Shown here piece after piece: positions 6,156-63,404 of a stretch of 64,000 nt of DNA (position 1 is its first letter; each line of letters opens with the position of its first letter). The stretch comes from Prevotella sp. (GTDB taxonomy: Bacteria; Bacteroidota; Bacteroidia; Bacteroidales; Bacteroidaceae). The stretch covers positions 48,177 through 112,176 of the forward strand of contig JAEEWT010000013.1 in NCBI GenBank assembly GCA_016287755.1, in the 5' to 3' direction. A program made the position numbers and the translations under genes. The notes under the pieces are model-generated. The model was not told the origin of the DNA, searched no databases, and saw only the letters and a program-made list of their open reading frames with translations.

Positions 6156-6168
6156 ATTTATTTGTATG

Positions 6169-6242
6169 TGATCCCGTTGGGATTCAAACCCAAGACCTTC
6201 AGAACCGGAATCTGACGCTCTATTCAGCTAAGCTACGGGACC
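6169..6242 (-). tRNA. tRNA-Arg (anticodon CCG)
   Basis: Reverse complement GGTCCCGTAGCTTAGCTGAATAGAGCGTCAGATTCCGGTTCTGAAGGTCTTGGGTTTGAATCCCAACGGGATCA folds as a cloverleaf with anticodon stem TCAGA/TCTGA and loop TTCCGGT. A TAccTTTG box lies upstream on the minus strand (~6260-6267). Confidence 0.95.
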
Positions 6243-6344
6243 ATTTTCTTAATTCGGGTGCAAAGGTAATAAAAAATGAGAGCAGAACAAAATGAATTCA
6301 TTCTTTTTTTGCCGAGACGGAGTATCTTCGGCGAAGCTCCCCCC

Positions 6345-7904: not shown

Positions 7905-8017
7905 TGTACTTCTCTCGTTTAATCGTACCTCTGACTTCGCCGAAGGTACTTCCACTCGGAAGTAAAAATAAACAATATTTATTTTGTACTTCTCTCGTTT
8001 AATCGTACCTTTGCAGC
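7905..8017 (+). repeat. Promoter-associated hairpin repeat, copy A (1 unit)
   Basis: TGTACTTCTCTCGTTTAATCGTACCT occurs at 7905 and 7985 (80-bp period); the second ends in the TAccTTTG box before ATG 8018. Internal hairpin GAAGTAAAAATAAA/TTTATTTTGTACTTC. Confidence 0.8.
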
Positions 8018-8992
8018 ATGAAAGTGAGTATGCTTCAAAAGATCAGTAGGTGGCTGGCGGCAAATGCTTCTTTGACGGTGATTGCCGTGGCCGTTTTTAC
8101 TTTTTTTGTACCTGATACCTTTAACTGGGTGAGGGGGAATACGCAGACGGTGATTTTAGGAATCATCATGCTGACCATGGGACTTACCCTTACCACGCAG
8201 GACTTCCGTATATTAGCCCATCGCCCGTGGGACATCTTCATCGGTGCCTGCGCGCAGTTTATCATCATGCCATGTGTGGCCTATCTGCTGGTACATGTGT
8301 TCCGTTTGGAACCCGCCTTGGCCTTGGGTATTCTGCTGGTGGGCTGCTGTCCCGGCGGTGTATCAAGTAATATCATGTCGTACCTCTGTCATGGCGATGT
8401 GGCCTTCTCTGTGGGAATGACCTGCGCCTCTACCCTACTGGCGCCTGTGATGACTCCGCTGCTGATGGAGCTGACGGCTGGTGAGATTATCAAGATAGAC
8501 ACCATCGGCATGTTCCTCAATATCCTCATCGTGACGATTATACCTGTGGCCATTGGCTGTTTCCTGAACTACACGTATTCGAAGAAGGAGTGCTTTCCAA
8601 CGATACAGTCGTTGATGCCCGGACTGAGTGTGATTTGTTTGGCCTGCATCGTAGGCGGCGTAATCTCTACTGTGCACGATGACCTGGTAGCCCGCGGACT
8701 GATGCTGTTCCTCTGGACCTTTGCCGTGGTGTTCTGTCATAACACCTTAGGCTATATGATGGGATGGCTGTCGGGAAAGCTCGCGCGGTTCAACACAGCA
8801 AAGAAACGCACCATATCCATCGAGGTGGGAATGCAGAATGCCGGACTGGCCACTGTTCTTGCCAGTACGTTCTTTGCTGCACAGCCTCTTGCCGTACTGC
8901 CCTGCGCCATATCATGTGCCTGGCACAGCATCAGTGGTACGATACTCGCTGGTCTCTTCCAACAATATGACAAGAAAAAAGGCATTGCTTAA
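8018..8992 (+). CDS. Bile acid:sodium symporter (BASS/SBF) family transporter
   Basis: 324 aa; MLTMGLTL, GCCPGGVSSN, SIEVGMQNAGLA. Confidence 0.93.
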   Translation: MKVSMLQKISRWLAANASLTVIAVAVFTFFVPDTFNWVRGNTQTVILGIIMLTMGLTLTTQDFRILAHRPWDIFIGACAQFIIMPCVAYLLVHVFRLEPALALGILLVGCCPGGVSSNIMSYLCHGDVAFSVGMTCASTLLAPVMTPLLMELTAGEIIKIDTIGMFLNILIVTIIPVAIGCFLNYTYSKKECFPTIQSLMPGLSVICLACIVGGVISTVHDDLVARGLMLFLWTFAVVFCHNTLGYMMGWLSGKLARFNTAKKRTISIEVGMQNAGLATVLASTFFAAQPLAVLPCAISCAWHSISGTILAGLFQQYDKKKGIA

Positions 8993-11163: not shown

Positions 11164-12336
11164 TTATTTGAACAGATACTGTGCAAACTCATGCAGCGAC
11201 TTGCGCCACACCTGCCACTCATGGTCGCCAGGATAGGAGTTGAACTTCACCTCCACCCCACCGTCGCGCATCTTCTTCACAATGTTACGGGTGTACTCTA
11301 TGCGTGGATCCTGCTCGCCGCAGCTCATGAAGAACACGTCGAACTGTTTGTTGAAGGTCTTGGTATCGGTTAATATGCCCGGCACCTCTTTCTCTAAATC
11401 GAAGTTCGAAGCGCCCTGAATACCGCCGAACATACCTGTGGAGAACACGCCCACGTTGGCGAACACCTCAGGGTCGCGCAGACCGATATAGAACGATTGT
11501 CCGCCTCCCATAGAAAGGCCGCACATGGCACGACTCTTACGGTCTTTCTTCACACGGTAGGTCTTCTCCACAAAGGGAATGATATTGTCAACCATTTCGC
11601 TGCGGAAAGTCTGCATACCTTGCCAGCTGTAGCCACCGCCGAAGCCACCATTACGGGAACGCACATTACTGTTCGAGCTCACCACGATCATCGGTACGGC
11701 CTTACCGACAGCAATCAGGTTGTCCATGATCTGGGCTGTCCTACCCTGCTCCATCCAACCACGATGATCCTCACCACCACCATGCTGGATATACACCACG
11801 GGGTAGTCCTGCTTACCGTCGTTATAGCCGGCCGGGGTATAGACCATCAGGGGTCGCCACGACTCATCCACCTTGCTATAATAATACACGGTGCGTACCT
11901 CACCATGAGGCACATCCTGCACCTCGAAGACATCCATACCTGCTTCCTTGATCTCGATGGCACTCGACCACCGACTGCATCCGTAGAACGACTGACTGGC
12001 GGGGTCGGCTGTTGAAACACCGTCAACAACGAGCGAATAGTAGTGGTATCCTGGCACCTGTGGATTGGTGGTCACGGTCCAGGCACCGTTATCCGACTTG
12101 TTCATATCATACTTTGTTCCGCACAGATCAATCTGTACGTTCTGTGCCTGTGGGGCGTTCACACGGAACATCACACGGTTATCTGAAAGCACACGCGGAT
12201 ATCCGTTGATGTTAATATTGGTCACTGGTGAGTAGGAACCTTCCGGGAAACTCTCCCGCTGGAATCCCTGTGCTGCAAGCTGTGTGCAGCAAACGACTGA
12301 CATCAAGGCGGTCAGCATCATTCCGGTAGTTTTCAT
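11164..12336 (-). CDS. Secreted CE1-type carbohydrate esterase with N-terminal CBM48-like domain
   Basis: 390 aa; signal peptide, FRVNAPQA and VPGYHYYSLVVDG, nucleophile GLSMGG, GDHEWQVWR. Confidence 0.9.
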   Translation of the reverse strand: MKTTGMMLTALMSVVCCTQLAAQGFQRESFPEGSYSPVTNININGYPRVLSDNRVMFRVNAPQAQNVQIDLCGTKYDMNKSDNGAWTVTTNPQVPGYHYYSLVVDGVSTADPASQSFYGCSRWSSAIEIKEAGMDVFEVQDVPHGEVRTVYYYSKVDESWRPLMVYTPAGYNDGKQDYPVVYIQHGGGEDHRGWMEQGRTAQIMDNLIAVGKAVPMIVVSSNSNVRSRNGGFGGGYSWQGMQTFRSEMVDNIIPFVEKTYRVKKDRKSRAMCGLSMGGGQSFYIGLRDPEVFANVGVFSTGMFGGIQGASNFDLEKEVPGILTDTKTFNKQFDVFFMSCGEQDPRIEYTRNIVKKMRDGGVEVKFNSYPGDHEWQVWRKSLHEFAQYLFK

Positions 12337-13109: not shown

Positions 13110-13198
13110 CGTACCTTTGGCTTTGCCGAATGTACTCACGTTCGGAAAAACTCAAATTTTGTTTGGTTTTTCGCTTACTTATTCGTACCTTTGGCTTC
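13110..13198 (+). repeat. Promoter-associated hairpin repeat, copy B (1 unit)
   Basis: CGTACCTTTGGCTT at 13110 and 13184 (74-bp period) enclosing TTTGCCGAATGTACTCACGTTCG and a GAAAAAC...GTTTTTC hairpin; ATG follows at 13199. Confidence 0.78.
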
Positions 13199-15055
13199 AT
13201 GAAACATTTCCACCCACTTCAAACCGACATTGCACGACCAAAGCAGTTCAATGATCCGTTTGATTACGAGCCACACCCGCTGAGTATCTTAGCGGTAGAA
13301 GAGGTGCAGCAGTATATCATGGAGCACCCTGAGATTAAGGAGGATGCTGATCAAGGGAAGATGTTTGGGGTGTTGGTTGTTTCTCTTCCGAGGAAGGACG
13401 AAGGAGAAAGGAGGAAGGAGATTTCTTCTGAGATACAGAATGAGGGTGCGGGAATTGGATTCTTGGCGGCGTATAGCGGATTGCTGGCTGGCAGGAACGA
13501 CTGGGAGTGGTTTGTGCCACCCGTGTTCGATGCGCAGGATCCTGATGGGTACTTCAAGGTGCATGAGCAGAAGATAACCGAGATGAACCACGAAGTGGAG
13601 TTGTTAGAAAAGGATTTGGATCATCTCTATCACCAGTCCGACTACCTGAAGATGCTTCGTACCACGGAGAACCTGCTCAGTGAACACGAGAAGAAGATGA
13701 AGACCGCTAAGGTGCTGCGCGACATGAAGCGTCTGCAACGCAACATCTCCCCTGAAGAGAATGCGGAGCTAATCCGAGAGAGTCAGTTCATGAAGGCCGA
13801 GATGCGGCGCATCAAGAAGCGCTGTGAGGAACTGGAGAAGCCGTGGAAGGAAAAGGAGCAATCACTGACAGACAGAATTGAACAACTGAAGAAACAACGC
13901 AAGGAGGCATCTGACGACCTACAGCGCTGGCTGTTCTCACAATACAAGATGAGGAACGCGCAGGGTGAGACCAAAGACCTCATCGAGATCTTCAACGACT
14001 ATAACGGTCAGCTACCCCCAGCGGGGTCGGGTGACTGCTGTGCACCGAAACTCCTGCAGTATGCTTTTGAGAACAACCTCCAACCCCTTTGCATGGCCGA
14101 ATTCTGGTGGGGCGCATCGCCCAAGATGGAGATCCGTCATCACCTGAACTATTATCCCGCCTGCAGAGGGAAGTGCCTCCCGATTTTGGGGTGGATGTTA
14201 TCGAGGAGGAAGGACGAAGGAGGAAGGACGAAGGAGATTACTTCTGAGATACAGGATTCGAAGGATTCAGCACAAGACTCATATACACAGGACATTTCTC
14301 CTTCCTCCCTCCTCCTTCCTCCTTCCTCGAAAAATATCCTCTTCGAAGACTCCCACCTCCTCGTGCTGAACAAACCCGCTGGGATGCTGAGTGTGCCGGG
14401 GAAGACTGGGGATGTGAGTGTGGAGAGCATGATGAGGGATTATCTGCATGATGATATGAATCCTATCATCGTGCACCGACTCGATATGGATACCTCAGGA
14501 CTGATGGTCGTTGCCAAGACTAAATGGACTTACACGGAGCTGCAAAAGCAGTTCCTGGAGCATCAGGTAGAGAAAACATACGTGGCTCTATTAGAGCACA
14601 TGCCCGAGGGAAAACCGCTCAAAGGCACCATCTCCCTACCCCTCCGACCGGATATTTATGACCGTCCGCGACAGCTGGTGGATTGGGAGAATGGGAAGGA
14701 GGCGATCACAGAATATTGGATTTCGAGGAAGGACGAAGGAGGAGGGAGGAAGGAGATTACTTCTGAGATACAGGATACAAAGGAGTCTGTTCAGGACACA
14801 GGCACCCAGTACATTTCTCCTTCCTCCTTCGTCCTTCCTCCTTCCTCGATAAGAATAACCCTCCGTCCCCGCACAGGGCGGACCCACCAACTGCGCGTGC
14901 ACTGCGCCCACCAGGAAGGATTGGGGGTGCCGATTGTGGGAGATGCGCTGTATGGACATCGGGCCGACCGCCTTTATCTGCATGCCGAAACACTGTCGTT
15001 CATTCATCCTAAGACGGGTGAACGACTCACCTTCACGGCACCCGCACCATTCTAA
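13199..15055 (+). CDS. rluA: RluA family pseudouridine synthase with long N-terminal domain, carrying three in-frame repeat insertions
   Basis: Start refined to ATG 13199 (MKHFHPL). Motifs GKMFGVLVV, AGSGDCCAPKLLQYA, NKPAGMLSVPG, VHRLDMDTSG, TGRTHQLRVH, RLYLHA. Confidence 0.93.
   Translation: MKHFHPLQTDIARPKQFNDPFDYEPHPLSILAVEEVQQYIMEHPEIKEDADQGKMFGVLVVSLPRKDEGERRKEISSEIQNEGAGIGFLAAYSGLLAGRNDWEWFVPPVFDAQDPDGYFKVHEQKITEMNHEVELLEKDLDHLYHQSDYLKMLRTTENLLSEHEKKMKTAKVLRDMKRLQRNISPEENAELIRESQFMKAEMRRIKKRCEELEKPWKEKEQSLTDRIEQLKKQRKEASDDLQRWLFSQYKMRNAQGETKDLIEIFNDYNGQLPPAGSGDCCAPKLLQYAFENNLQPLCMAEFWWGASPKMEIRHHLNYYPACRGKCLPILGWMLSRRKDEGGRTKEITSEIQDSKDSAQDSYTQDISPSSLLLPPSSKNILFEDSHLLVLNKPAGMLSVPGKTGDVSVESMMRDYLHDDMNPIIVHRLDMDTSGLMVVAKTKWTYTELQKQFLEHQVEKTYVALLEHMPEGKPLKGTISLPLRPDIYDRPRQLVDWENGKEAITEYWISRKDEGGGRKEITSEIQDTKESVQDTGTQYISPSSFVLPPSSIRITLRPRTGRTHQLRVHCAHQEGLGVPIVGDALYGHRADRLYLHAETLSFIHPKTGERLTFTAPAPF
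13389..13438 (+). repeat. Intragenic palindromic element, left arm plus core (rluA copy 1)
   Basis: CGAGGAAGGACGAAGGAGAAAGGAGGAAGGAGATTTCTTCTGAGATACAG, read in frame as PRKDEGERRKEISSEIQ. Confidence 0.85.
14201..14330 (+). repeat. Intragenic palindromic element, complete 130-bp copy (rluA copy 2)
   Basis: TCGAGGAGGAAGGACGAAGG... / ...CCTTCCTCCTTCCTCGA arms with core CTTCTGAGATACAG at 14241; encodes SRRKDEGGRTKEITSEIQ...ISPSSLLLPPSS. Confidence 0.9.
14723..14849 (+). repeat. Intragenic palindromic element, complete 127-bp copy (rluA copy 3)
   Basis: TCGAGGAAGGACGAAGGAGG... / ...CCTTCGTCCTTCCTCCTTCCTCGA with core CTTCTGAGATACAG at 14760; encodes SRKDEGGGRKEITSEIQ...ISPSSFVLPPSS. Confidence 0.9.
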
Positions 15056-17596: not shown

Positions 17597-17758
17597 CTTC
17601 ACCGAAGGTTCTCACACTCGGAAAACCAAAGAAAAACAAGCTTTTCACTCGTTTATTCGTAACTTTGGCTTCGCCGAAGTTACTTCCGCTCGGAAAACCA
17701 AAGAAAAACAAGCTTTTCTTTGGTTTTTCACTCGCTTAATCGTAACTTTGCAGCCGAT
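17594..17758 (+). repeat. Promoter-associated hairpin repeat, copy C (2 tandem units)
   Basis: CTCGGAAAACCAAAGAAAAACAAGCTTTTC twice; each unit ends in CGTAACTTTG. Unit 2 has a perfect 14-bp stem, unit 1 lacks most of the right arm. Confidence 0.85.
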
Positions 17759-18577
17759 ATGGCAAAAAAGCAGATATTATTGATCAACGACCTTGCCGGC
17801 TATGGTAAGGTGGCCACGGCAGCGATGCTTCCCATCCTGTCGTATATGGGGCACCCTGTGTATAACCTCCCTACGGCGCTGGTATCGAACACCCTCGACT
17901 ATGGGAAGTTCAATATCATGGACACCACGGATTATATAAAAGGTGTATTCCCGGTGTGGAAGGAACTCGGTTTCAGTTTCGATGCTATTGCCACTGGATT
18001 CATTGCCAGTGAGCGACAGGCACAGATTGTGGCTGCCTACTGTCGTGAGCAAGCTGCCAACGGTACGGTGATCTTCGTTGATCCTATCATGGGTGATGAG
18101 GGAAAGCTGTATAATGGTGTTACGGAAGCGGCCGTGCAGAGCATGCGCGAGATGATTAGTGTGGCCCATCTGATCTTCCCTAACTACACCGAGGCCTGTT
18201 ACCTTACCGATACCCCTTATCGGAAAGAAGGCGTGAACTGGCAGGAGGCCAAGGAACTGCTTGACAAGCTGCGCCAATTAGGCACAAAGTCGGCCTTGAT
18301 CACCAGTCTGATGGTAGATGGGCAATGTGCGGTGGTGGGCTATAACCACTTCATCGGCGAGTATTTCCTACTTCCCTATACCGAGATCCCCGTCCACTTC
18401 CCCGGTACAGGCGATATGTTCTCAGCCATCCTCATCGGTCATCTGCTCAACGACGAGCCGTTGAAACCCAGTACCCGTATTGCCATGGACGCCCTCTATC
18501 GTCTGATTGAGGTAAACAAAGACAATGAGGACAAAAACCGGGGCATCCCCATCGAGAACTGGCTCTCACTCCTTTGA
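17759..18577 (+). CDS. pdxK: Pyridoxal/pyridoxamine kinase
   Basis: Start refined to ATG 17759 (MAKKQILLIND). Motifs LPTALVSN, VDPIMGD, PNYTEA, FPGTGDMF. Confidence 0.9.
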   Translation: MAKKQILLINDLAGYGKVATAAMLPILSYMGHPVYNLPTALVSNTLDYGKFNIMDTTDYIKGVFPVWKELGFSFDAIATGFIASERQAQIVAAYCREQAANGTVIFVDPIMGDEGKLYNGVTEAAVQSMREMISVAHLIFPNYTEACYLTDTPYRKEGVNWQEAKELLDKLRQLGTKSALITSLMVDGQCAVVGYNHFIGEYFLLPYTEIPVHFPGTGDMFSAILIGHLLNDEPLKPSTRIAMDALYRLIEVNKDNEDKNRGIPIENWLSLL

Positions 18578-18628: not shown

Positions 18629-19321
18629 TCACTCATTGCGTTTGTCGATGATTTGATATCCCTGATACTTCTGTCGGGGGAAGACGAACAGGTCATCACT
18701 GATATTCCCACTCTTGAAGTTACTGATCTTCACTGTTGTGCTGATAATTCCCAACTTAATGCGAAGACTCAAAGGGTAGCGTGTCTTCTTATCAATTAAG
18801 GCATGTATCTCTTTGATGCCCTTCACTCCTTTCTTTGCTTTCAAGGTAACGACAAACCCTTCATCACTATCAGCAATGCTGTATAGGAAATTCTCGGGTT
18901 CGAACTTGAACTTCGTGGCATACTTGTCACGTTTGTCGGAATTTGCATCATATATAGAAACCGTTTTCTTCTTCCGCTCCACCAGATAATAGGTGACGCC
19001 ATCACTGAAAGCGTTATACTTCTCATCCACGAACTTGCTCTTCTTACCCTTATACCAGATTGTACCCTCGGTTTTGTAGATACCTATGATATTGACAGCA
19101 TAATGCAATGTGGAACCCTGAGCACCAAACACCATCTGATAGGTACGGTCAAAGATCTGCCGGGCCTGTCGGGCATTGGCCGACTGCTCCTGAGGGGCAG
19201 ACTTTGCCTTTTTGGATTGAGCGGACGTCAGTTGGGGCGAAATAAGACCTACGACAATTAGCAGGAATAAAAATCCCCACCTCTTCCACACGATGATTGG
19301 GAATATATCAACTTTTCGCAT
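18629..19321 (-). CDS. LolA-like outer-membrane lipoprotein carrier-type protein
   Basis: Probable start 19321 or later; signal-like segment, EGTIWYKGKK, SDGVTYY, beta-rich LolA-like pattern. Confidence 0.6.
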   Translation of the reverse strand: MRKVDIFPIIVWKRWGFLFLLIVVGLISPQLTSAQSKKAKSAPQEQSANARQARQIFDRTYQMVFGAQGSTLHYAVNIIGIYKTEGTIWYKGKKSKFVDEKYNAFSDGVTYYLVERKKKTVSIYDANSDKRDKYATKFKFEPENFLYSIADSDEGFVVTLKAKKGVKGIKEIHALIDKKTRYPLSLRIKLGIISTTVKISNFKSGNISDDLFVFPRQKYQGYQIIDKRNE

Positions 19322-19428
19322 ATCAGATACAAAGGTACGAATAATCGCGGCAAAGGAGATAAAAATAATGAATTTATTTTGTATTGTCCTCATTTATTCG
19401 TATCTTTGGCTCCGCAAATTAATTAATC

Positions 19429-20661
19429 ATGATAAACATGACAATTACCGAAAGATTTTTAAACTACGTGAAGTTCGACACACAGTCGAGCGAAGAGAGT
19501 ACTACCGTACCCAGTACATCCAAGCAACTGATATTTGCCAAATACCTGAAAGAAGAGTTGGAACGCGAAGGCTTTGCCGACGTGGAGATGGACGAGATGG
19601 GATATATCTATGCCACACTGAAATCGAACACGAAGAAAGAAGTTCCAACCATCGGCTTTATCTCGCATTATGACACATCTCCCGACTGCAGTGGTGCTGA
19701 TATCAAACCCAGTATCGTGAGCAACTACAACGGCTGTGATATCGAACTGTCACCGGGTATCATCTCATCGCCCAAGAAGTTCCCTGAACTGCTGCAGCAT
19801 GTGGGTGAGGACTTGATAGTGACCGACGGAACCACGCTGTTAGGAGCAGACGACAAGGCTGGTATTGCCGAGATTGTACAGGCTATGTGCTGGCTGCGCG
19901 ACCATAAGGAGATTCCACATGGCGATATCCGTATGGGATTCAATCCCGATGAGGAGATCGGTATGGGCGCACATCACTTTGATGTGGAGAAGTTCGGCTG
20001 TGAATGGGCTTACACCATCGACGGCGGTGACTTAGGTGAGCTGGAGTTCGAGAACTTCAACGCTGCCAGTGCGAAGATCCAGATCAAGGGCGTGAGCGTG
20101 CATCCGGGCTATGCCAAGGGCAAGATGATCAATGCCAGCAGACTGGCTGCCGAGTTCATCATGATGCTGCCTGCCGATGAGATTCCTGAGGAAACGGAAG
20201 GCTATGAGGGCTTCTATCACATCACGGGCATGGAGGCATGTACAGAGAATGCCAAGCTGAGCTATATCATCCGCGATCACGACAGAGATACGTTCGAGGA
20301 CCGCAAACGACTCGTGCAGATCTGTGCCGATAAGATGAACGAGAAATACGGCGAGGGAACGGTGACGGCAGAGATCAAGGACCAGTATTATAATATGAAA
20401 GAGAAGATTGATCCGAACATGCACGTGATTGATGTCGTACTGAAAGCCATGCAGGAATGTGATGTTCCGCCACGGGTGAAGCCCATCAGGGGCGGTACCG
20501 ACGGTGCACAGCTCTCTTTCAAGGGTCTTCCCTGTCCGAACATCTTTGCCGGTGGTGTGAACTTCCACGGACCGTTCGAGTTCATCAGTGTACAGGTAAT
20601 GGAGAAGGCCATGCAAACCATCGTGAAGATCTGTGAGCTCACGGCGGGATATAATGACTGA
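19429..20661 (+). CDS. pepT: Peptidase T (tripeptide aminopeptidase)
   Basis: [45 protein letters not shown]. Confidence 0.97.
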
Positions 20662-20665
20662 CGTC

Positions 20666-20725
20666 AATTTGAATTGAGAATTGATAATTGATAATTGAAA
20701 ATTGAAAATTAATTCTTATTAATTG
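20666..20725 (+). repeat. Heptamer (AATTGA[G/T/A])n tandem array
   Basis: AATTGAG AATTGAT AATTGAT AATTGAA AATTGAA between pepT and the antiporter gene. Confidence 0.8.
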
Positions 20726-41326: not shown

Positions 41327-41512
41327 GCAAAGGTACGATTAAGCGAGCACAATACAAAATAAATAAGGATTTATTTTTATTGTCGAGCGTAAGTACCTTC
41401 GGCGGAGCCAAAGTTCGACTAAGCGAGCACAATACAAAATAAATAAGGATTTATTTTTATTGTCGAGCGAAAGTACATTCGGCAAAGCCAGAGTTCGAAT
41501 AAGCGAGCACAA
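41327..41512 (-). repeat. Promoter-associated hairpin repeat, copy D (2 tandem 80-bp units plus partial)
   Basis: A 50-bp identical direct repeat at 41340 and 41420 with a third start at 41500; on the minus strand the last unit ends CGTACCTTTGCACC-ATG of the antiporter. Confidence 0.88.
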
Positions 41513-41585
41513 AAGCAAATAATAATTAGAATTATTATTGCAAGTTTCCACATAATTTTATACCTTTGCAGTGAAAAATCGGAAT

Positions 41586-43232
41586 ATGAAACTTTTTCGG
41601 TCTCTACATATCATCCCTGCCATCCTATGCGCTACCCTGTTCTACGCATGCAGACAGCATTCTACAAGTTCACTGGAGCAACACCGCCAGTATGCCGACA
41701 GTGTATATGGCGAAATCAAGGATCTTGACGTACTCAGACATATCGAAGATAGTCTGGAGAAAGAAGATGACCACCAATCACTTATCTTCCTGGAAAAGCA
41801 GTTGGGAAAACAGCTGCGCAACAACAGTAATTTCATTGAGGCATTAGATCATCACAAGGAAGGACTGCTCTATGCCACCATGCTCAAGGATACGGTAGAG
41901 ATGATCCGTGCCAACAACAACATCGCCACCGACTTCCGTCGTATGGGTATTCTCGATGATGCTGCCTCCAACCACTATGCGGCATTGACGCTTTGCGAGC
42001 AATACTCCGACAAGACATCCTTTGAAGCCAAGAAGAACCGCGTTACCTCGCTGAACGGCTTAGGAAATGTTTACCTGACGATGAAAGACCTGGCCACAGC
42101 CGACAGTCTGTTCCGTCTTGCACTGGAAGATGAGAAGATCTTGGACAGCGATGTAGGACAGGCCATTAACTATGCCAATATCGGAGCGATCTTTGAGCAG
42201 CAGGGCAAGTACGACTCGGCGTGGGTTTACTACAAGAAGTCGATGGAATACAACCGGAAAGGGAAGTCAGACCTGGGTATCAGTCTGTGCTACACCCACT
42301 TCGGACAGCTCCACGAGAAGAACCGCCAATGGGATAAAGCCATCTCTGAATATAAGAATGCGTATGAGATGATGGAGAAATCGGGCGACCAGTGGCACTG
42401 GCTGGAGTCGGTCATTGCATTGGCCAACGTAAACATCTCGAAGGGCGACATGAACGAAGCCCAACGATTTATTCAACAAGCTCAGGAGATTGCCACGAAC
42501 ATCCATTCCCTGGAGCACCAGGCACAAGTGGCGGAGCTCCAATACAAGATGGAAGAGGCAAAGGGCAACTACCATCAGGCGCTCAGCTATTTCAAGCTTA
42601 GGAACAAGTTGAACGACAGTGTGGGCTCTCCAGAGGAACTGCTTCACACGCAGAACTATCGCGTACGCTACGTCAACGAGCGTCACCAGAATGAGATGGA
42701 TGCCATCAAGCGCACCCATAAGGCTGAGCAAGGCGTACTGCGAATAACTATCATCGCCATCATTCTCGCTCTCGCACTGGCTGTTACAGTTATTGGCATC
42801 TTGTACCACTCTTGGCGAGTAAGGTCGAAACGTTTGAAGATGCTACGTGAAGAGTTCTCCAAGGCGATGCAGGAAGGAAAGAAACCGGAAACACGCTTCA
42901 GTGATGAGGAGAACGATTTCATCAACAAGCTGGTGAACCAGATCTACGAAGACATGCAGACGGGAGACATTTCCGTGGAGAAGCTGTCGAAAACCATGTA
43001 TATCAGTCGTTCGCAACTGTCGAGGAAAGTTTTGAACCTGACAGGTATGAGCACCTCCGATTTTGTCATGCAGGTTCGTATGGGTAAGGCCAGACGCTTA
43101 CTGGAAGACACGACGACACCTATTACCGAGGTGGCTTTGAAGTGTGGATTCAATGATCCTTCGTATTTTACGAGAATGTTCAAGAAAACATACGACATTA
43201 CGCCGTCGCAAGCACGCAAACGCTCCAAATAG
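41586..43232 (+). CDS. Membrane-spanning TPR-sensor / AraC-HTH one-component regulator
   Basis: Lipoprotein-like N-terminus (LFYAC), TPR helices, one TM (ITIIAIILALAL), C-terminal ISRSQLSRKV and CGFNDPSYFTRMFKK. Confidence 0.88.
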   Translation: MKLFRSLHIIPAILCATLFYACRQHSTSSLEQHRQYADSVYGEIKDLDVLRHIEDSLEKEDDHQSLIFLEKQLGKQLRNNSNFIEALDHHKEGLLYATMLKDTVEMIRANNNIATDFRRMGILDDAASNHYAALTLCEQYSDKTSFEAKKNRVTSLNGLGNVYLTMKDLATADSLFRLALEDEKILDSDVGQAINYANIGAIFEQQGKYDSAWVYYKKSMEYNRKGKSDLGISLCYTHFGQLHEKNRQWDKAISEYKNAYEMMEKSGDQWHWLESVIALANVNISKGDMNEAQRFIQQAQEIATNIHSLEHQAQVAELQYKMEEAKGNYHQALSYFKLRNKLNDSVGSPEELLHTQNYRVRYVNERHQNEMDAIKRTHKAEQGVLRITIIAIILALALAVTVIGILYHSWRVRSKRLKMLREEFSKAMQEGKKPETRFSDEENDFINKLVNQIYEDMQTGDISVEKLSKTMYISRSQLSRKVLNLTGMSTSDFVMQVRMGKARRLLEDTTTPITEVALKCGFNDPSYFTRMFKKTYDITPSQARKRSK

Positions 43233-61589: not shown

Positions 61590-61688
61590 TAACTTTGCGA
61601 ATTCATTCGCGAAGTTACAATGCACTCGGCAATGCAAAGAAAAACAAGCTTTTCTTTTGCATTGCTCTCGTTTTTTCGTAACTTTGCA
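61590..61688 (+). repeat. Promoter-associated hairpin repeat, copy E (1 unit)
   Basis: TAACTTTGC at 61590 and 61679; CACTCG-GCAATGCAAAGAAAA-ACAAGC-TTTTCTTTTGCATTGC-TCTCG between them. Confidence 0.78.
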
Positions 61689-61718: not shown

Positions 61719-63404
61719 ATGCTTCAGATTCGCTGTAAAAACAATAACATGACCAAGAGTTTCCCTGAGGGAACCTCATTACTGGATGTGTATCAGGAAT
61801 TTGCCGACGACATCAAATTACCCTACCCCGTGGTCTCGGCCAAAGTAAATAACGCCTCGCAAGGACTGAAGTTCCGTCTCTATCAGAACCGCGACGTGGA
61901 GTTCCTCGATGCACGCGAGGGCTCAGGGCACCGTGTCTATGTGCGCTCTCTCTGCTTTGTGCTATACAAGGCTACACAAGACCTTTTCCCGGGTTCCAAG
62001 CTCTTCATCGAGCACACCATCTCACGCGGTTATTATTGTAACTTCAAGAAGAAGGGCTACGAGCCGATGGTCGAAGGTGACGTGGAAAAAATCCGCGAAC
62101 GCATGCAGGAGATCATCAACCTCGACATGCCGTTCCGCCGGAATGAGGCAACCACCGAGGAGGCCCTCCGTGTGTTTGCAGAGCGAGGACTGACAGACAA
62201 GGTGAAACTGTTGGAGAGTAGTGGACAGATTTACAGCGATTATTATATGCTGGGCGACACGGCAGACTACTATTATGGACCGTTGGTTCCTTCTGCCGGC
62301 TATCTGACGGTGTGGGGACTGGAAACCTACCACGACGGTATGCTGTTAAGAGTACCCGACTGGAACAATCCCACCCAACTGGCAGAGAAGGTGGATATGC
62401 CCAAGACATACGAGATGTTTGCCGAGAAGACGAAGTGGGACATCATCATGCGCCTGTCGAATGCCGGTGATGTGAACAAGGCTATCCTGAAGGGACATGC
62501 GTCGGAACTGATACAGGTGAGTGAGGCACTGCAGGAGAAAAAGATCGTGCAGATAGCTGAAGAGATTGACCGCCGTTTCCACGACGAGGAGAACCCGGTA
62601 CGAATGGTACTCATCACTGGTCCTTCTTCATCGGGCAAGACGACATTCTGTAAACGACTCAGCGTGCAGCTGCTTGCCTGCGGTCTGCGCCCGCTATCGT
62701 TCTCTACCGATGACTATTTCGTGAACCGCCTGGATACACCGAAACTGCCCAATGGCGACTACGATTTCGACAATATCGAGACCGTGGAGTATAACCTGCT
62801 CGAAGACCATCTGCTTCGACTCATGAAGGGGGAACGGGTGGAGATTCCTGAGTATAACTTCGTGACGGGTAAACGGGAATGGAACGGAAAGAAACTGAAG
62901 CTGGCCGGCGACACCGTACTGATTATTGAAGGTATCCATGCCTTGAACCCGCTGCTGACGAAGAAGATTCCCGACTCGCTGAAATACAAGATCTACATAT
63001 CGGCGCTTACCAGTATTTCGCTCGATGACCATAACTGGATTCCTGTACGCGACAACCGATTACTGCGCCGTATCATACGCGACTACAACAAAGGGGCTTA
63101 TACGGCTCAGCAGACCATTGCTCAATGGAAGAATGTGTGTGAGGCTGAGGATCAGTGGATCTTCCCCTTCCAGGAGACGGCCGATGCCATGTTCAACTCT
63201 GCCCTGAACATCGAGTTCGCAGTACTGCGCACCCATGCCGAGATTATCCTGGCCTCCGTACCTAAGAACTGTGATGAGTATGCCGAGGCACACCGTTTGC
63301 TGAAATTCCTGCGTTATTTCATTCCTATCAGCGATAAGGAGATTCCACCCACCAGTATTATGAGAGAGTTTGTGGGTGGGTCAAGCTTTAAGTACCCGAG
63401 ATAA
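61719..63404 (+). CDS. Uridine/nucleoside kinase with N-terminal ThrRS-like (TGS/editing-like) region
   Basis: Start refined to ATG 61719. Motifs TGPSSSGKTT, STDDYF, IIEGIHALNP, DNRLLRRIIRD, REFVGGS. Confidence 0.88.
   Translation: MLQIRCKNNNMTKSFPEGTSLLDVYQEFADDIKLPYPVVSAKVNNASQGLKFRLYQNRDVEFLDAREGSGHRVYVRSLCFVLYKATQDLFPGSKLFIEHTISRGYYCNFKKKGYEPMVEGDVEKIRERMQEIINLDMPFRRNEATTEEALRVFAERGLTDKVKLLESSGQIYSDYYMLGDTADYYYGPLVPSAGYLTVWGLETYHDGMLLRVPDWNNPTQLAEKVDMPKTYEMFAEKTKWDIIMRLSNAGDVNKAILKGHASELIQVSEALQEKKIVQIAEEIDRRFHDEENPVRMVLITGPSSSGKTTFCKRLSVQLLACGLRPLSFSTDDYFVNRLDTPKLPNGDYDFDNIETVEYNLLEDHLLRLMKGERVEIPEYNFVTGKREWNGKKLKLAGDTVLIIEGIHALNPLLTKKIPDSLKYKIYISALTSISLDDHNWIPVRDNRLLRRIIRDYNKGAYTAQQTIAQWKNVCEAEDQWIFPFQETADAMFNSALNIEFAVLRTHAEIILASVPKNCDEYAEAHRLLKFLRYFIPISDKEIPPTSIMREFVGGSSFKYPR

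Follow-up and report, generated by a model that had tools for sequence, protein, structure and literature searches.

A stackable palindromic unit carrying a predicted promoter recurs in front of unrelated genes in a Prevotella genome

The 64,000-nucleotide stretch of Prevotella sp. DNA studied here (the window; contig JAEEWT010000013.1, positions 48,177 to 112,176 of the forward strand) carries, in front of a gene of the Na/Ca exchanger family, a tandem array of short palindromic units. These units belong to a real, abundant, and apparently undescribed family of stackable palindromic promoter cassettes. Each unit is 75 to 85 bp long and forms one long imperfect palindrome with compensatory changes throughout, and its 3′ half reads as a complete sigma-A type promoter (TTTG, a 19- to 20-nt spacer, and TAnCTTTG). 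The identity of the unit and its predicted role as a promoter are well supported by its sequence, and on balance we favor the view that the units are portable promoter cassettes that exist, evolve, and spread as DNA.

Anatomy of the unit and its promoter

The flagged array lies on the minus strand at 41328-41523, and Tandem Repeats Finder recovered most of it (41328-41512) as 2.3 copies of a repeat with an 80-nt period, matching at 91% and scoring 305. The gene-proximal unit (41328..41408, minus strand; 81 nt) scores 99 bits with a covariance model of the unit, R1, which was also used for the genus and order scans described below. Read 5′ to 3′, it consists of a mini-hairpin (GCTCCGC), a reverse-complement box (rc-box; CGAAGGTAC), a left linker (TTACGCTCG), an AT-rich hairpin that we call H2 (about 41348-41384, minus strand), a right linker (GCTCGCTTAATCG), and an intact −7 box (TACCTTTG; 41328-41335, minus strand), with the −33 element TTTG (41355..41358, minus strand) lying in the 3′ arm of H2, 19 nt 5′ of the −7 box. 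The ATG of the downstream Na/Ca exchanger family gene (PF01699; 40391..41323, minus strand) follows the box after 4 nt. The distal unit (41409..41488, minus strand; 80 nt) shares its H2 type with the proximal unit and closes with a degenerate box, GAACTTTG (41409-41416, minus strand). Directly 5′ of it is a partial cassette (41489..41523, minus strand), made up of the 3′ arm of another H2 type and a linker and closed by a second degenerate box, GAACTCTG (41489-41496, minus strand). Only the gene-proximal box of the array is therefore intact, and because the two upstream boxes are degenerate, the claim of the preliminary description that each unit ends in the −7 box is true in form but not always in function. 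An opposite-facing −7 box, again TACCTTTG (41561..41568, plus strand), would serve the divergent TPR/AraC regulator gene, whose ATG is at 41586.

The Bacteroidetes sigma-ABfr promoter has a −33 TTTG and a −7 TAnnTTTG element (PMC7366714), and the 3′ half of the unit matches both its architecture and its spacing. In 154 of 160 units, 19 or 20 nt separate the TTTG from the box. The promoter is built into the palindrome, such that its apical hairpin carries the −33 TTTG in the 3′ arm, the spacer is formed by the conserved linker CTCgCTTAaTCG, and the −7 box is the 3′ foot of the palindrome. The gene-proximal box is perfect (6/6) in 137 of 140 units, a figure that is biased upward, as the search profile included the box. 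Unlike the units, ordinary sigma-ABfr promoters have no conserved palindrome, no 80-nt homology across loci, and no stacking. Our working model is that the gene-proximal unit would be the working promoter and that upstream units would be older, decaying copies.

The full unit reads, 5′ to 3′, mini-hairpin, rc-box (CGAAGnTAC), left linker (TnnCGCTCG), AT-rich H2, right linker (nGCTCgCTTAaTCG), and box (TAnCTTTG). The 5′ mini-hairpin is GCTTCGC, with one subfamily carrying CGAATTCATTCG and compensated variants, and the H2 sequences split into several subfamilies. We aligned 48 full units, each with 16 nt of upstream flank (alignment A1), and found that the rc-box and the unit's own 3′ box are paired in 97.5% of cells. 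At its variable position, the rc-box is paired to the unit's own 3′ box in 47 of the 48 units (GC in 26, AU in 12, UA in 8, and GU in 1) and to the adjoining upstream box in only 33. Since the rc-box follows its own 3′ box better than the upstream box, the natural unit starts just behind one box and finishes with the next, and we rejected pairing of the upstream box (box1) with the rc-box as the primary structure on the same counts. Seven or so units without any upstream box start at (g)CTTCGCC, the same 5′ boundary.

Covariation extends beyond the two ends. In RNAalifold analysis, linker pair 34-84 is GC in 35 units, AU in 8, and UA in 1, and pair 35-83 is CG in 25 and UA in 16; covarying pairs were also found at the base of H2. 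Thus, the earlier proposal that the hairpin arms vary among loci yet stay paired was borne out, with real covariation in the rc-box and box, the linkers, and the base of H2. In 64 of 74 units the two ends are joined in the minimum-free-energy fold; the mean z score against dinucleotide shuffles is −3.0. Together with the covarying linkers and H2 base, these end-pairing folds identify the whole unit as one long imperfect hairpin.

The hairpin is not symmetrical. A TTTG/CGAA wobble (T·G) is invariant in 48 of 48 units and can form on the sense strand only. The 5′ half mirrors the promoter half except that CGAAG replaces CAAAG and the spacer is shorter, so that the 5′ arm pairs by G·T wobble yet gives no reverse promoter; with TTCG in the mirror arm, no reverse −7 box arises. 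At eight two-strand loci, by contrast, the left arm is a true reverse promoter (CAAAGGTAC plus a full spacer) and the cassette is bidirectional. We also considered an invertible promoter and set it aside, by reasoning only, on the grounds that inversion between the end repeats would not yield a good reverse promoter.

Copies, gene context, and stacking across the genome

The genome is a 3.21-Mb draft in 48 contigs and is 99.98% complete. The extended box TCGTA[AC]CTTTG occurs 151 times in it, against about 0.2 expected, with about 25 of these occurrences in a CRISPR array. An nhmmer profile iterated from 27 seeds detected 178 units at 139 loci, of which 106 are single, 27 double, and 6 triple, a few of the double loci being two-strand matches on bidirectional cassettes. 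Among the 167 units whose match reaches the box, 162 have an ATG-initiated open reading frame (ORF) of at least 70 amino acids starting in the same orientation within 300 nt downstream, and in 103 this start lies within 40 nt, compared with 17 for the opposite-side control. The five units without such a start comprise one before the RNase P RNA, two before tRNA genes (one confirmed by Rfam and one read from sequence), and two that are unexplained. The Rfam model of the RNase P RNA begins 9 nt past the unit's box, and its helix P1 could be lengthened until only about 6 nt remain. The downstream genes are functionally unrelated, as had been noted at the outset, and include those for the Na/Ca exchanger, an SBF transporter, an RluA-type synthase, PdxK, a PRK-family kinase, an M20 peptidase, a tRNA, and RNase P RNA.

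The two unexplained units, at C45:42432 (minus strand) and C2:359 (plus strand), both precede a common sequence, CACTGTCAGAACGAAAGTTTTGACTACGCC. Downstream of them, we found no ATG-initiated ORF of at least 70 amino acids within 300 nt and no Rfam match within 0.9 to 2 kb, and the sequence bearing CACTGTCAGAACGAAAGTTTTGACTACGCC may encode an RNA that is not annotated, or a gene whose start is atypical.

By location, 72 loci lie in divergent spacers and 57 in co-directional ones, and 8 are two-strand cassettes; 80 of 296 divergent intergenic regions, roughly a quarter, carry a unit. No unit was found in any of 299 convergent spacers, and 25 co-directional loci begin no more than 40 nt after the upstream stop codon. 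These placements bear on the idea that the units are palindromes of the repetitive extragenic palindrome (REP)/bacterial interspersed mosaic element (BIME) or IS200/IS605 type, REPIN-like, serviced by a RAYT/TnpA protein and acting mainly at mRNA 3′ ends, in termination or stabilization. The units do resemble such elements in being short extragenic palindromes with many copies and tandem clusters, some directly after stop codons. Against this, the Y1 transposase domain (Y1_Tnp, PF01797) gave 0 matches in this genome and matches in 6 control genomes, the convergent spacers are empty, the orientation is strictly toward the downstream gene, and there is no GTAG-type head. The absence of Y1 and the promoter-only placement largely refute this idea, which we regard as extremely improbable.

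Dispersed copies resemble each other closely. The nearest dispersed neighbor of a unit has a median identity of 90% over about 79 nt and lies upstream of an unrelated gene, and 7 of 74 units have a dispersed neighbor at 95 to 98.6% identity, again in front of unrelated genes; one pair has even a degenerate flanking box in common. Such likeness might in principle arise with no copying between loci, by convergent selection for an extended optimal promoter combined with local tandem duplication. The −33 element, the spacer length, and the −7 box are indeed functional constraints, and TCGTAnCTTTGCA is also found at hairpin-free promoters, for example, before tRNA genes. Convergence fits poorly with dispersed copies that share arbitrary details (H2 loop sequences, the 5′ mini-hairpin, and the degenerate TAACTCTG box) and reach 98.6% identity, with a density of 1.6 units per 100 kb in related species compared with 5.5 here, and with the presence of different unit subfamilies at the same promoter in different strains. 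The subfamily structure contradicts it, and we hold it to be highly unlikely.

At their 5′ ends, the units usually abut promoter boxes. Among the 51 full units at the head of a locus, 36 abut a match of at least 5/6 to TAnnTTTG at the exact 5′ end, where the background is 1.4%, and the sequence 5′ of the abutted box is mostly T rich, as in an ordinary promoter spacer, and shows no relation to the unit. This upstream box is perfect in 22 of the 51 and imperfect in 29, with 15 falling below 5/6 even when a 1-nt shift is allowed, and the damage in upstream boxes is recurrent (CTCTG, CATTG, or a lost T). The variable base of the flanking box agrees with that of the unit in 21 of 29 cases (10.7 expected), and that of the unit's own box does so in 27 of 29.

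The abutting box, together with the folding described above, raises the question of a structured leader or cis-regulatory RNA, an alternative offered in the preliminary description, in which the upstream box fires and the unit forms a 5′ hairpin of the mRNA that controls stability, termination, or translation. The unit does fold as one long hairpin; its covariation includes an invariant G·U wobble workable on the sense strand only; a transcript from box1 would open with the 5′ arm, which would base-pair to the stretch immediately ahead of the AUG; and the 25 co-directional loci near an upstream stop codon would receive read-through. Weighing more heavily on the other side, the box that would have to do the transcribing is imperfect in 29 of 51 cases and 72 of the 139 loci lie in divergent spacers, with no source of read-through. 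Furthermore, partial units in which the 5′ arm is entirely missing occur about as often as full ones and in the same position, units precede tRNA and RNase P RNA genes, no Rfam family matches, and strains whose genes are identical differ by replacement or deletion of hairpins. An RNA of this kind is thus improbable.

Tandem stacking with regeneration of the −7 box, proposed from the window alone, was supported: the order is box-unit-box, with units head to tail. Of 30 adjacent pairs, 28 have the higher score in the proximal unit (p about 9e-7), as do 10 of the 11 pairs in which both are full length. We concluded that a stack has polarity, with the presumed working copy beside the gene and decaying copies upstream. 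The suggestion that copy number tunes transcription is doubtful for the same reason, because distal units and their boxes decay. Some adjacent units are nearly identical (0.91 to 0.92), as in a recent tandem duplication, and others are only 0.70 to 0.77 identical, against a random-pair mean of 0.74. Adjacent units that are no more alike than random pairs point to separate acquisitions at one promoter.

Several further observations concern boxes and stacks. In Muribaculaceae arrays (L020, L065, L066, L069, and L030), the upstream boxes are systematically TAACGTTG and the gene-proximal box is TAACTTTG, a pattern that we read as a probable lineage-specific disabling of internal boxes. A variant subfamily of at least 8 copies has the box/mini-hairpin/rc-box segment replaced by GGATAAAATC and a longer last spacer (CTCACTTAATCAGATTTTTCGTACCTTTG); its members are mostly stacked behind a normal unit (C12:160516, C25:224499, C27:94782, C27:21212, C32:143745, and C38:33609). 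The CRISPR array (C3:89605-93042; about 45 repeats) has a 47-nt repeat, GTTGTGATTAGCTAGAATTTTCGTACCTTTGTGGTCGAATCAACAAC, that contains the same extended −7 box, which suggests repeat-internal promoters, as in type II-C systems. Heptamer arrays (AATTGAA and GGAGTGT) lie directly upstream of boxes, for example, at C21:43648, at C32:227278, and at 20672-20710 of the window.

The window itself holds seven loci, not the five first listed, although all five are present as described and the consensus given for them holds (box, cTTCGCCGAAGnTAC, CTCG, a variable hairpin, CTCGcTTAaTCG, box, and then ATG). In addition to the flagged array, these are as follows. Locus A (7926..8013, plus strand) has box1 TACCTCTG (7926-7933) and one full unit ending in TACCTTTG (8006-8013), ahead of a plus-strand gene for an SBF-like transporter with its ATG at 8018. 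Locus B (13112..13193, plus strand) has box1 TACCTTTG (13112-13119) and one unit ending in the same box (13186-13193), followed on the plus strand by an RluA-type pseudouridine synthase gene (ATG at 13199). Locus C (17597..17750, plus strand) starts directly after the pdxT stop codon and consists of two plus-strand units, C1 (17597-17667), in which H2 is truncated, and C2 (17668-17750), after which comes the pdxK ATG at 17759. Locus E (61590..61686, plus strand) combines box1 TAACTTTG with a unit of the subfamily that has the longer 5′ hairpin CGAATTCATTCG, and the ATG of a plus-strand PRK-family kinase gene is at 61719.

Two loci had escaped the first listing. One is a unit on the minus strand (6261..6337) whose box ends 18 nt before a tRNA-Arg(CCG) gene (6168-6242). 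The other is a bidirectional cassette (19315..19427, both strands) with a shared hairpin between a leftward box, CAAAGGTA (19330-19337), and a rightward box, TATCTTTG (19401-19408); it is flanked by a leftward gene (likely ATG, 19320) and an M20 peptidase gene (ATG at 19429). The mechanically called ORF at 18629-19393 (minus strand) has a start, 19393, that falls inside this cassette. Its true start is likely the ATG at 19320, 9 nt past the reverse box, and the homologue on contig L145 aligns only from residue 20.

Turnover between strains and routes of spread

We compared alleles on contigs encoding exactly the identical downstream protein and found that the number of units at orthologous promoters is 0, 1, 2, or 3; the loci are not invariant, and empty promoters exist. 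At the flagged locus, there are no units in L127, where the promoter is a plain ...cacttttttcgTACCTTTGcacccATG, one unit on four contigs, two in the window and on four contigs, and three in L130. The first unit of the two-unit alleles carries either of two H2 types. In eight other species of the genus, the orthologous Na/Ca exchanger gene has a plain promoter. The pdxT-pdxK spacer holds two units with differing hairpins and linkers, one unit with a third hairpin, or a unit that lacks its hairpin. Compared with L141, allele L143 (about 470-510) is missing a hairpin exactly between two CACTCG direct repeats, a loss that fits slippage across a palindrome flanked by short repeats.

At the tdk promoter, one contig reads ...attattgttgTATCTTTGtagccATG and five others read ...attattgttgTATCTTTG, 73 nt, and TATCTTTGtccccATG, so that the alleles differ by a clean 81-nt indel equal to one unit plus one box. 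The empty allele has filled haplotypes as its nearest relatives and differs at 2 of the 5 bases between the box and the ATG. In a third tdk allele (L238, about 400-495), about 105 nt of unrelated sequence, including CACTATT heptamer repeats, replaces the unit. Differences among xth promoter alleles are confined to the flanking box and the 5′ mini-hairpin, and at aroQ, locus A, and locus F whole cassettes differ between strains. Locus B is invariant in the few contigs found (the exact-protein match gave two, one of which is shown to be identical to the window), and no contig encoding the protein downstream of locus E is on record. Taken together, strains with identical coding sequences differ in the number and identity of the cassettes before housekeeping genes.

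The distribution across taxa is patchy. With model R1, the unit was found in 90 of 121 genomes of the same genus, in counts ranging from none to at least 34, and, in a sample spanning the Bacteroidales, in 16 of 251 genomes and 14 of 182 genera; a few other lineages there have many copies. Exact-pattern matches in species-representative genomes came from rumen and gut Prevotella metagenome-assembled genomes (MAGs), from Xylanibacter brevis ATCC 19188, and from genomes labeled Alistipes, Muribaculaceae, Porphyromonadaceae, Candidatus Caccoplasma, and Bacteroides; they keep the unit architecture, with box types typical of the lineage (TATC in Alistipes and TAAC in Muribaculaceae). The density of 1.6 units per 100 kb quoted above is for contigs of related rumen species recovered in a metagenome scan around the window gene at 11164-12336 (80 loci, of which only L145, used as a strain comparison, is syntenic). 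Full units also occur on contigs of MAGs labeled Acutalibacteraceae and Oscillibacter (Firmicutes; L034, L058, L085, and L092), which are most likely mis-binned Bacteroidales contigs and not cases of cross-phylum transfer. No unit was found in plasmid and phage collections.

How might such cassettes be gained? We suggest that units would be acquired exactly behind an existing −7 box with the box regenerated, giving box-unit-box, and that the most likely route would be a copying process that is enzyme-free and relies on short homology as its anchor. A nascent strand with a box at its end would switch to the box of a unit elsewhere, copy the unit, and switch back; slippage between boxes could then alter copy number, ectopic conversion could swap internal modules, and intrastrand template switching could keep the arms complementary. 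Such switching from box to box would explain both the box-unit-box order and the matching box types. Enzyme-free copying is favored by the absence of a Y1/RAYT transposase, by the internal mosaicism of the units, and by the absence of multicopy ORFs: among ORFs of at least 200 amino acids, an all-against-all comparison yielded only one unrelated pair and none as a partner (individual DDE families were not searched).

This account is weakest at the copying mechanism, and a number of points weigh against it. Template switching on 8 to 13 nt of homology is conjectural, and the promoter activity of the units is itself predicted solely from anatomy and context. No direction could be assigned to the tdk indel, whose empty allele may be a precise loss. 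The G·T wobble, the unequal linkers, and the 5′ mini-hairpin are more easily explained by structure-recognizing machinery or horizontal transfer, and these would also accommodate a near-identical architecture in Rikenellaceae, Muribaculaceae, and Prevotella more easily than passive copying does. Finally, a 48-contig draft could hide collapsed insertion sequences.

A rival account is a promoter-homing mobile element, in which an enzyme would recognize the folded single-stranded unit, the 5′ arm (CGAAGnTAC) would pair with a TAnCTTTG box, and insertion would take place exactly 3′ of that box. In its favor, the phase at which units abut boxes is fixed; the variable base is common to the unit arm, the flanking box, and the unit's own box far more often than chance would give; compensatory changes extend over the full length of the strand-asymmetric hairpin; some arrays hold units no more alike than random ones (about 0.72 versus 0.74); the spread over genus and order is patchy and lineage specific; and the tdk indel is a clean one of one unit plus one box. 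Homing accounts better than enzyme-free copying for the conserved asymmetries and the order-wide patchy spread. It is less easily squared with the lack of any Y1/HUH transposase or multicopy transposase-like ORF despite about 175 units in a genome that is 99.98% complete, with the lack of copies on plasmids or phages, with modules that swap independently within units (typical of conversion and not of whole-element transposition), and with the fact that nothing was seen at nonpromoter sites. We consider such homing possible but unlikely, and the same tentative standing applies to its fullest form, a new class of Bacteroidales promoter-homing DNA in which the 5′ arm acts as guide and the element's own 3′ arm rebuilds the promoter. 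The original suggestion of a mobile element that targets and duplicates promoters thus stands insofar as the repeats bear promoters, regenerate boxes, and vary between strains; its other part, a dedicated machinery for transposition, is less certain, as no partner enzyme was found and the module swaps fit recombination or template switching equally well.

If the units are indeed portable promoter cassettes, promoter turnover would be, beside gene content, a major and fast axis along which strains of gut and rumen Bacteroidales vary, one that assemblies and pangenome analyses ignoring intergenic repeats would miss. The unit would also provide a ready-made, compact, insulated strong promoter for genetic tools in Prevotella, Alistipes, and Muribaculaceae, which are poorly tractable. 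Were a dedicated homing mechanism at work, it would represent a new kind of mobile DNA targeting promoters, by which bacteria would exchange and stack whole promoters independently of genes.

Relation to known repeat and promoter families

The unit matches no described Rfam family. At gathering thresholds, a search of the whole window returned only a tRNA, and at E values of up to 10, the flagged locus gave chance-level matches only. In the literature on TAnnTTTG repeats, mobile promoters, Prevotella palindromes, and MITEs (miniature transposable elements with inverted repeats) of Bacteroides and Prevotella, we found no description of it. A large automatic catalogue of Bacteroidota MITEs may list such units without characterizing them (PMC11602168).

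Putative mobile promoters (PMPs), as outlined by Matus-Garcia, Nijveen, and van Passel in 2012, are a BLAST-defined class, mostly of pairs and with no defined anatomy in that outline (PMC3575422). The criterion given there asks for 50 nt or more at 80% identity or better, upstream of nonparalogous genes and in the window from −150 to −50 (PMC3575422). Our units reach this level of identity and lie closer to the start codon. In the terms of that outline, both are similar noncoding sequences before nonhomologous genes, occur across taxa, have no identified mobilization mechanism, and are not in Rfam; the units differ in their defined palindrome with a full promoter, their roughly 175 copies, their head-to-tail stacks, their abutment to boxes, and their turnover at the strain level.

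Correia elements of Neisseria (CREE/NEMIS) are inverted repeats of about 100 to 150 bp, present in hundreds of copies, with outward promoters that alter the expression of neighboring genes. They have 26-bp terminal inverted repeats, duplicate TA, and occur in either orientation and also at 3′ ends. Like the units, they are small, promoter-bearing inverted repeats with many copies. Unlike them, the units strictly face genes, have an 8-bp −7 box as the duplicated or regenerated sequence, form tandem stacks, and have a variable hairpin core. With REP/BIME and REPIN-RAYT sequences, the units share the form of short extragenic palindromes with compensatory change, clustering, and lineage-specific abundance, but the genome has no detected RAYT/Y1, convergent spacers are empty, and a promoter is carried.

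BrickBuilt of Porphyromonas gingivalis, another Bacteroidales repeat, is a composite MITE far larger than the unit, and it has terminal inverted repeats and a 23-bp minisatellite. It contains internal tandem repeats and is discussed as affecting neighboring transcription (PMC4596501). Compared by that description and not base by base, it bears no likeness to the unit in sequence or architecture. The ends of the unit, CCGAAGnTAC and GTAnCTTTGG (9 to 11 nt), are complementary, as terminal inverted repeats would be, but the right end is the promoter box itself. The variable base in these ends covaries, which is not expected of the site of a sequence-specific transposase. The box-unit-box arrangement and the 81-nt tdk indel resemble an 8-bp duplication of TATCTTTG, and slippage between boxes explains them equally.

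In the attC sites of integrons, as in the units, structure and not sequence is recognized or maintained; attC sites have R″/R′ core sites (RYYYAAC ... GTTRRRY). Like the units, they are imperfect palindromes with conserved ends and a variable center, strand asymmetric, arranged head to tail, and joined at a short junction core. The units differ from attC sites in having no cargo ORF between sites, no GTTRRRY core visible in their consensus, and 139 dispersed loci in place of one array. On the defining features that were tested, the units fall outside the REP/RAYT, IS200/IS605, DDE-MITE, and Rfam families. The PMP class, as outlined in its source, is the closest concept to these units, Correia elements are the closest in behavior, and REP/REPIN palindromes and attC sites are the closest in form.

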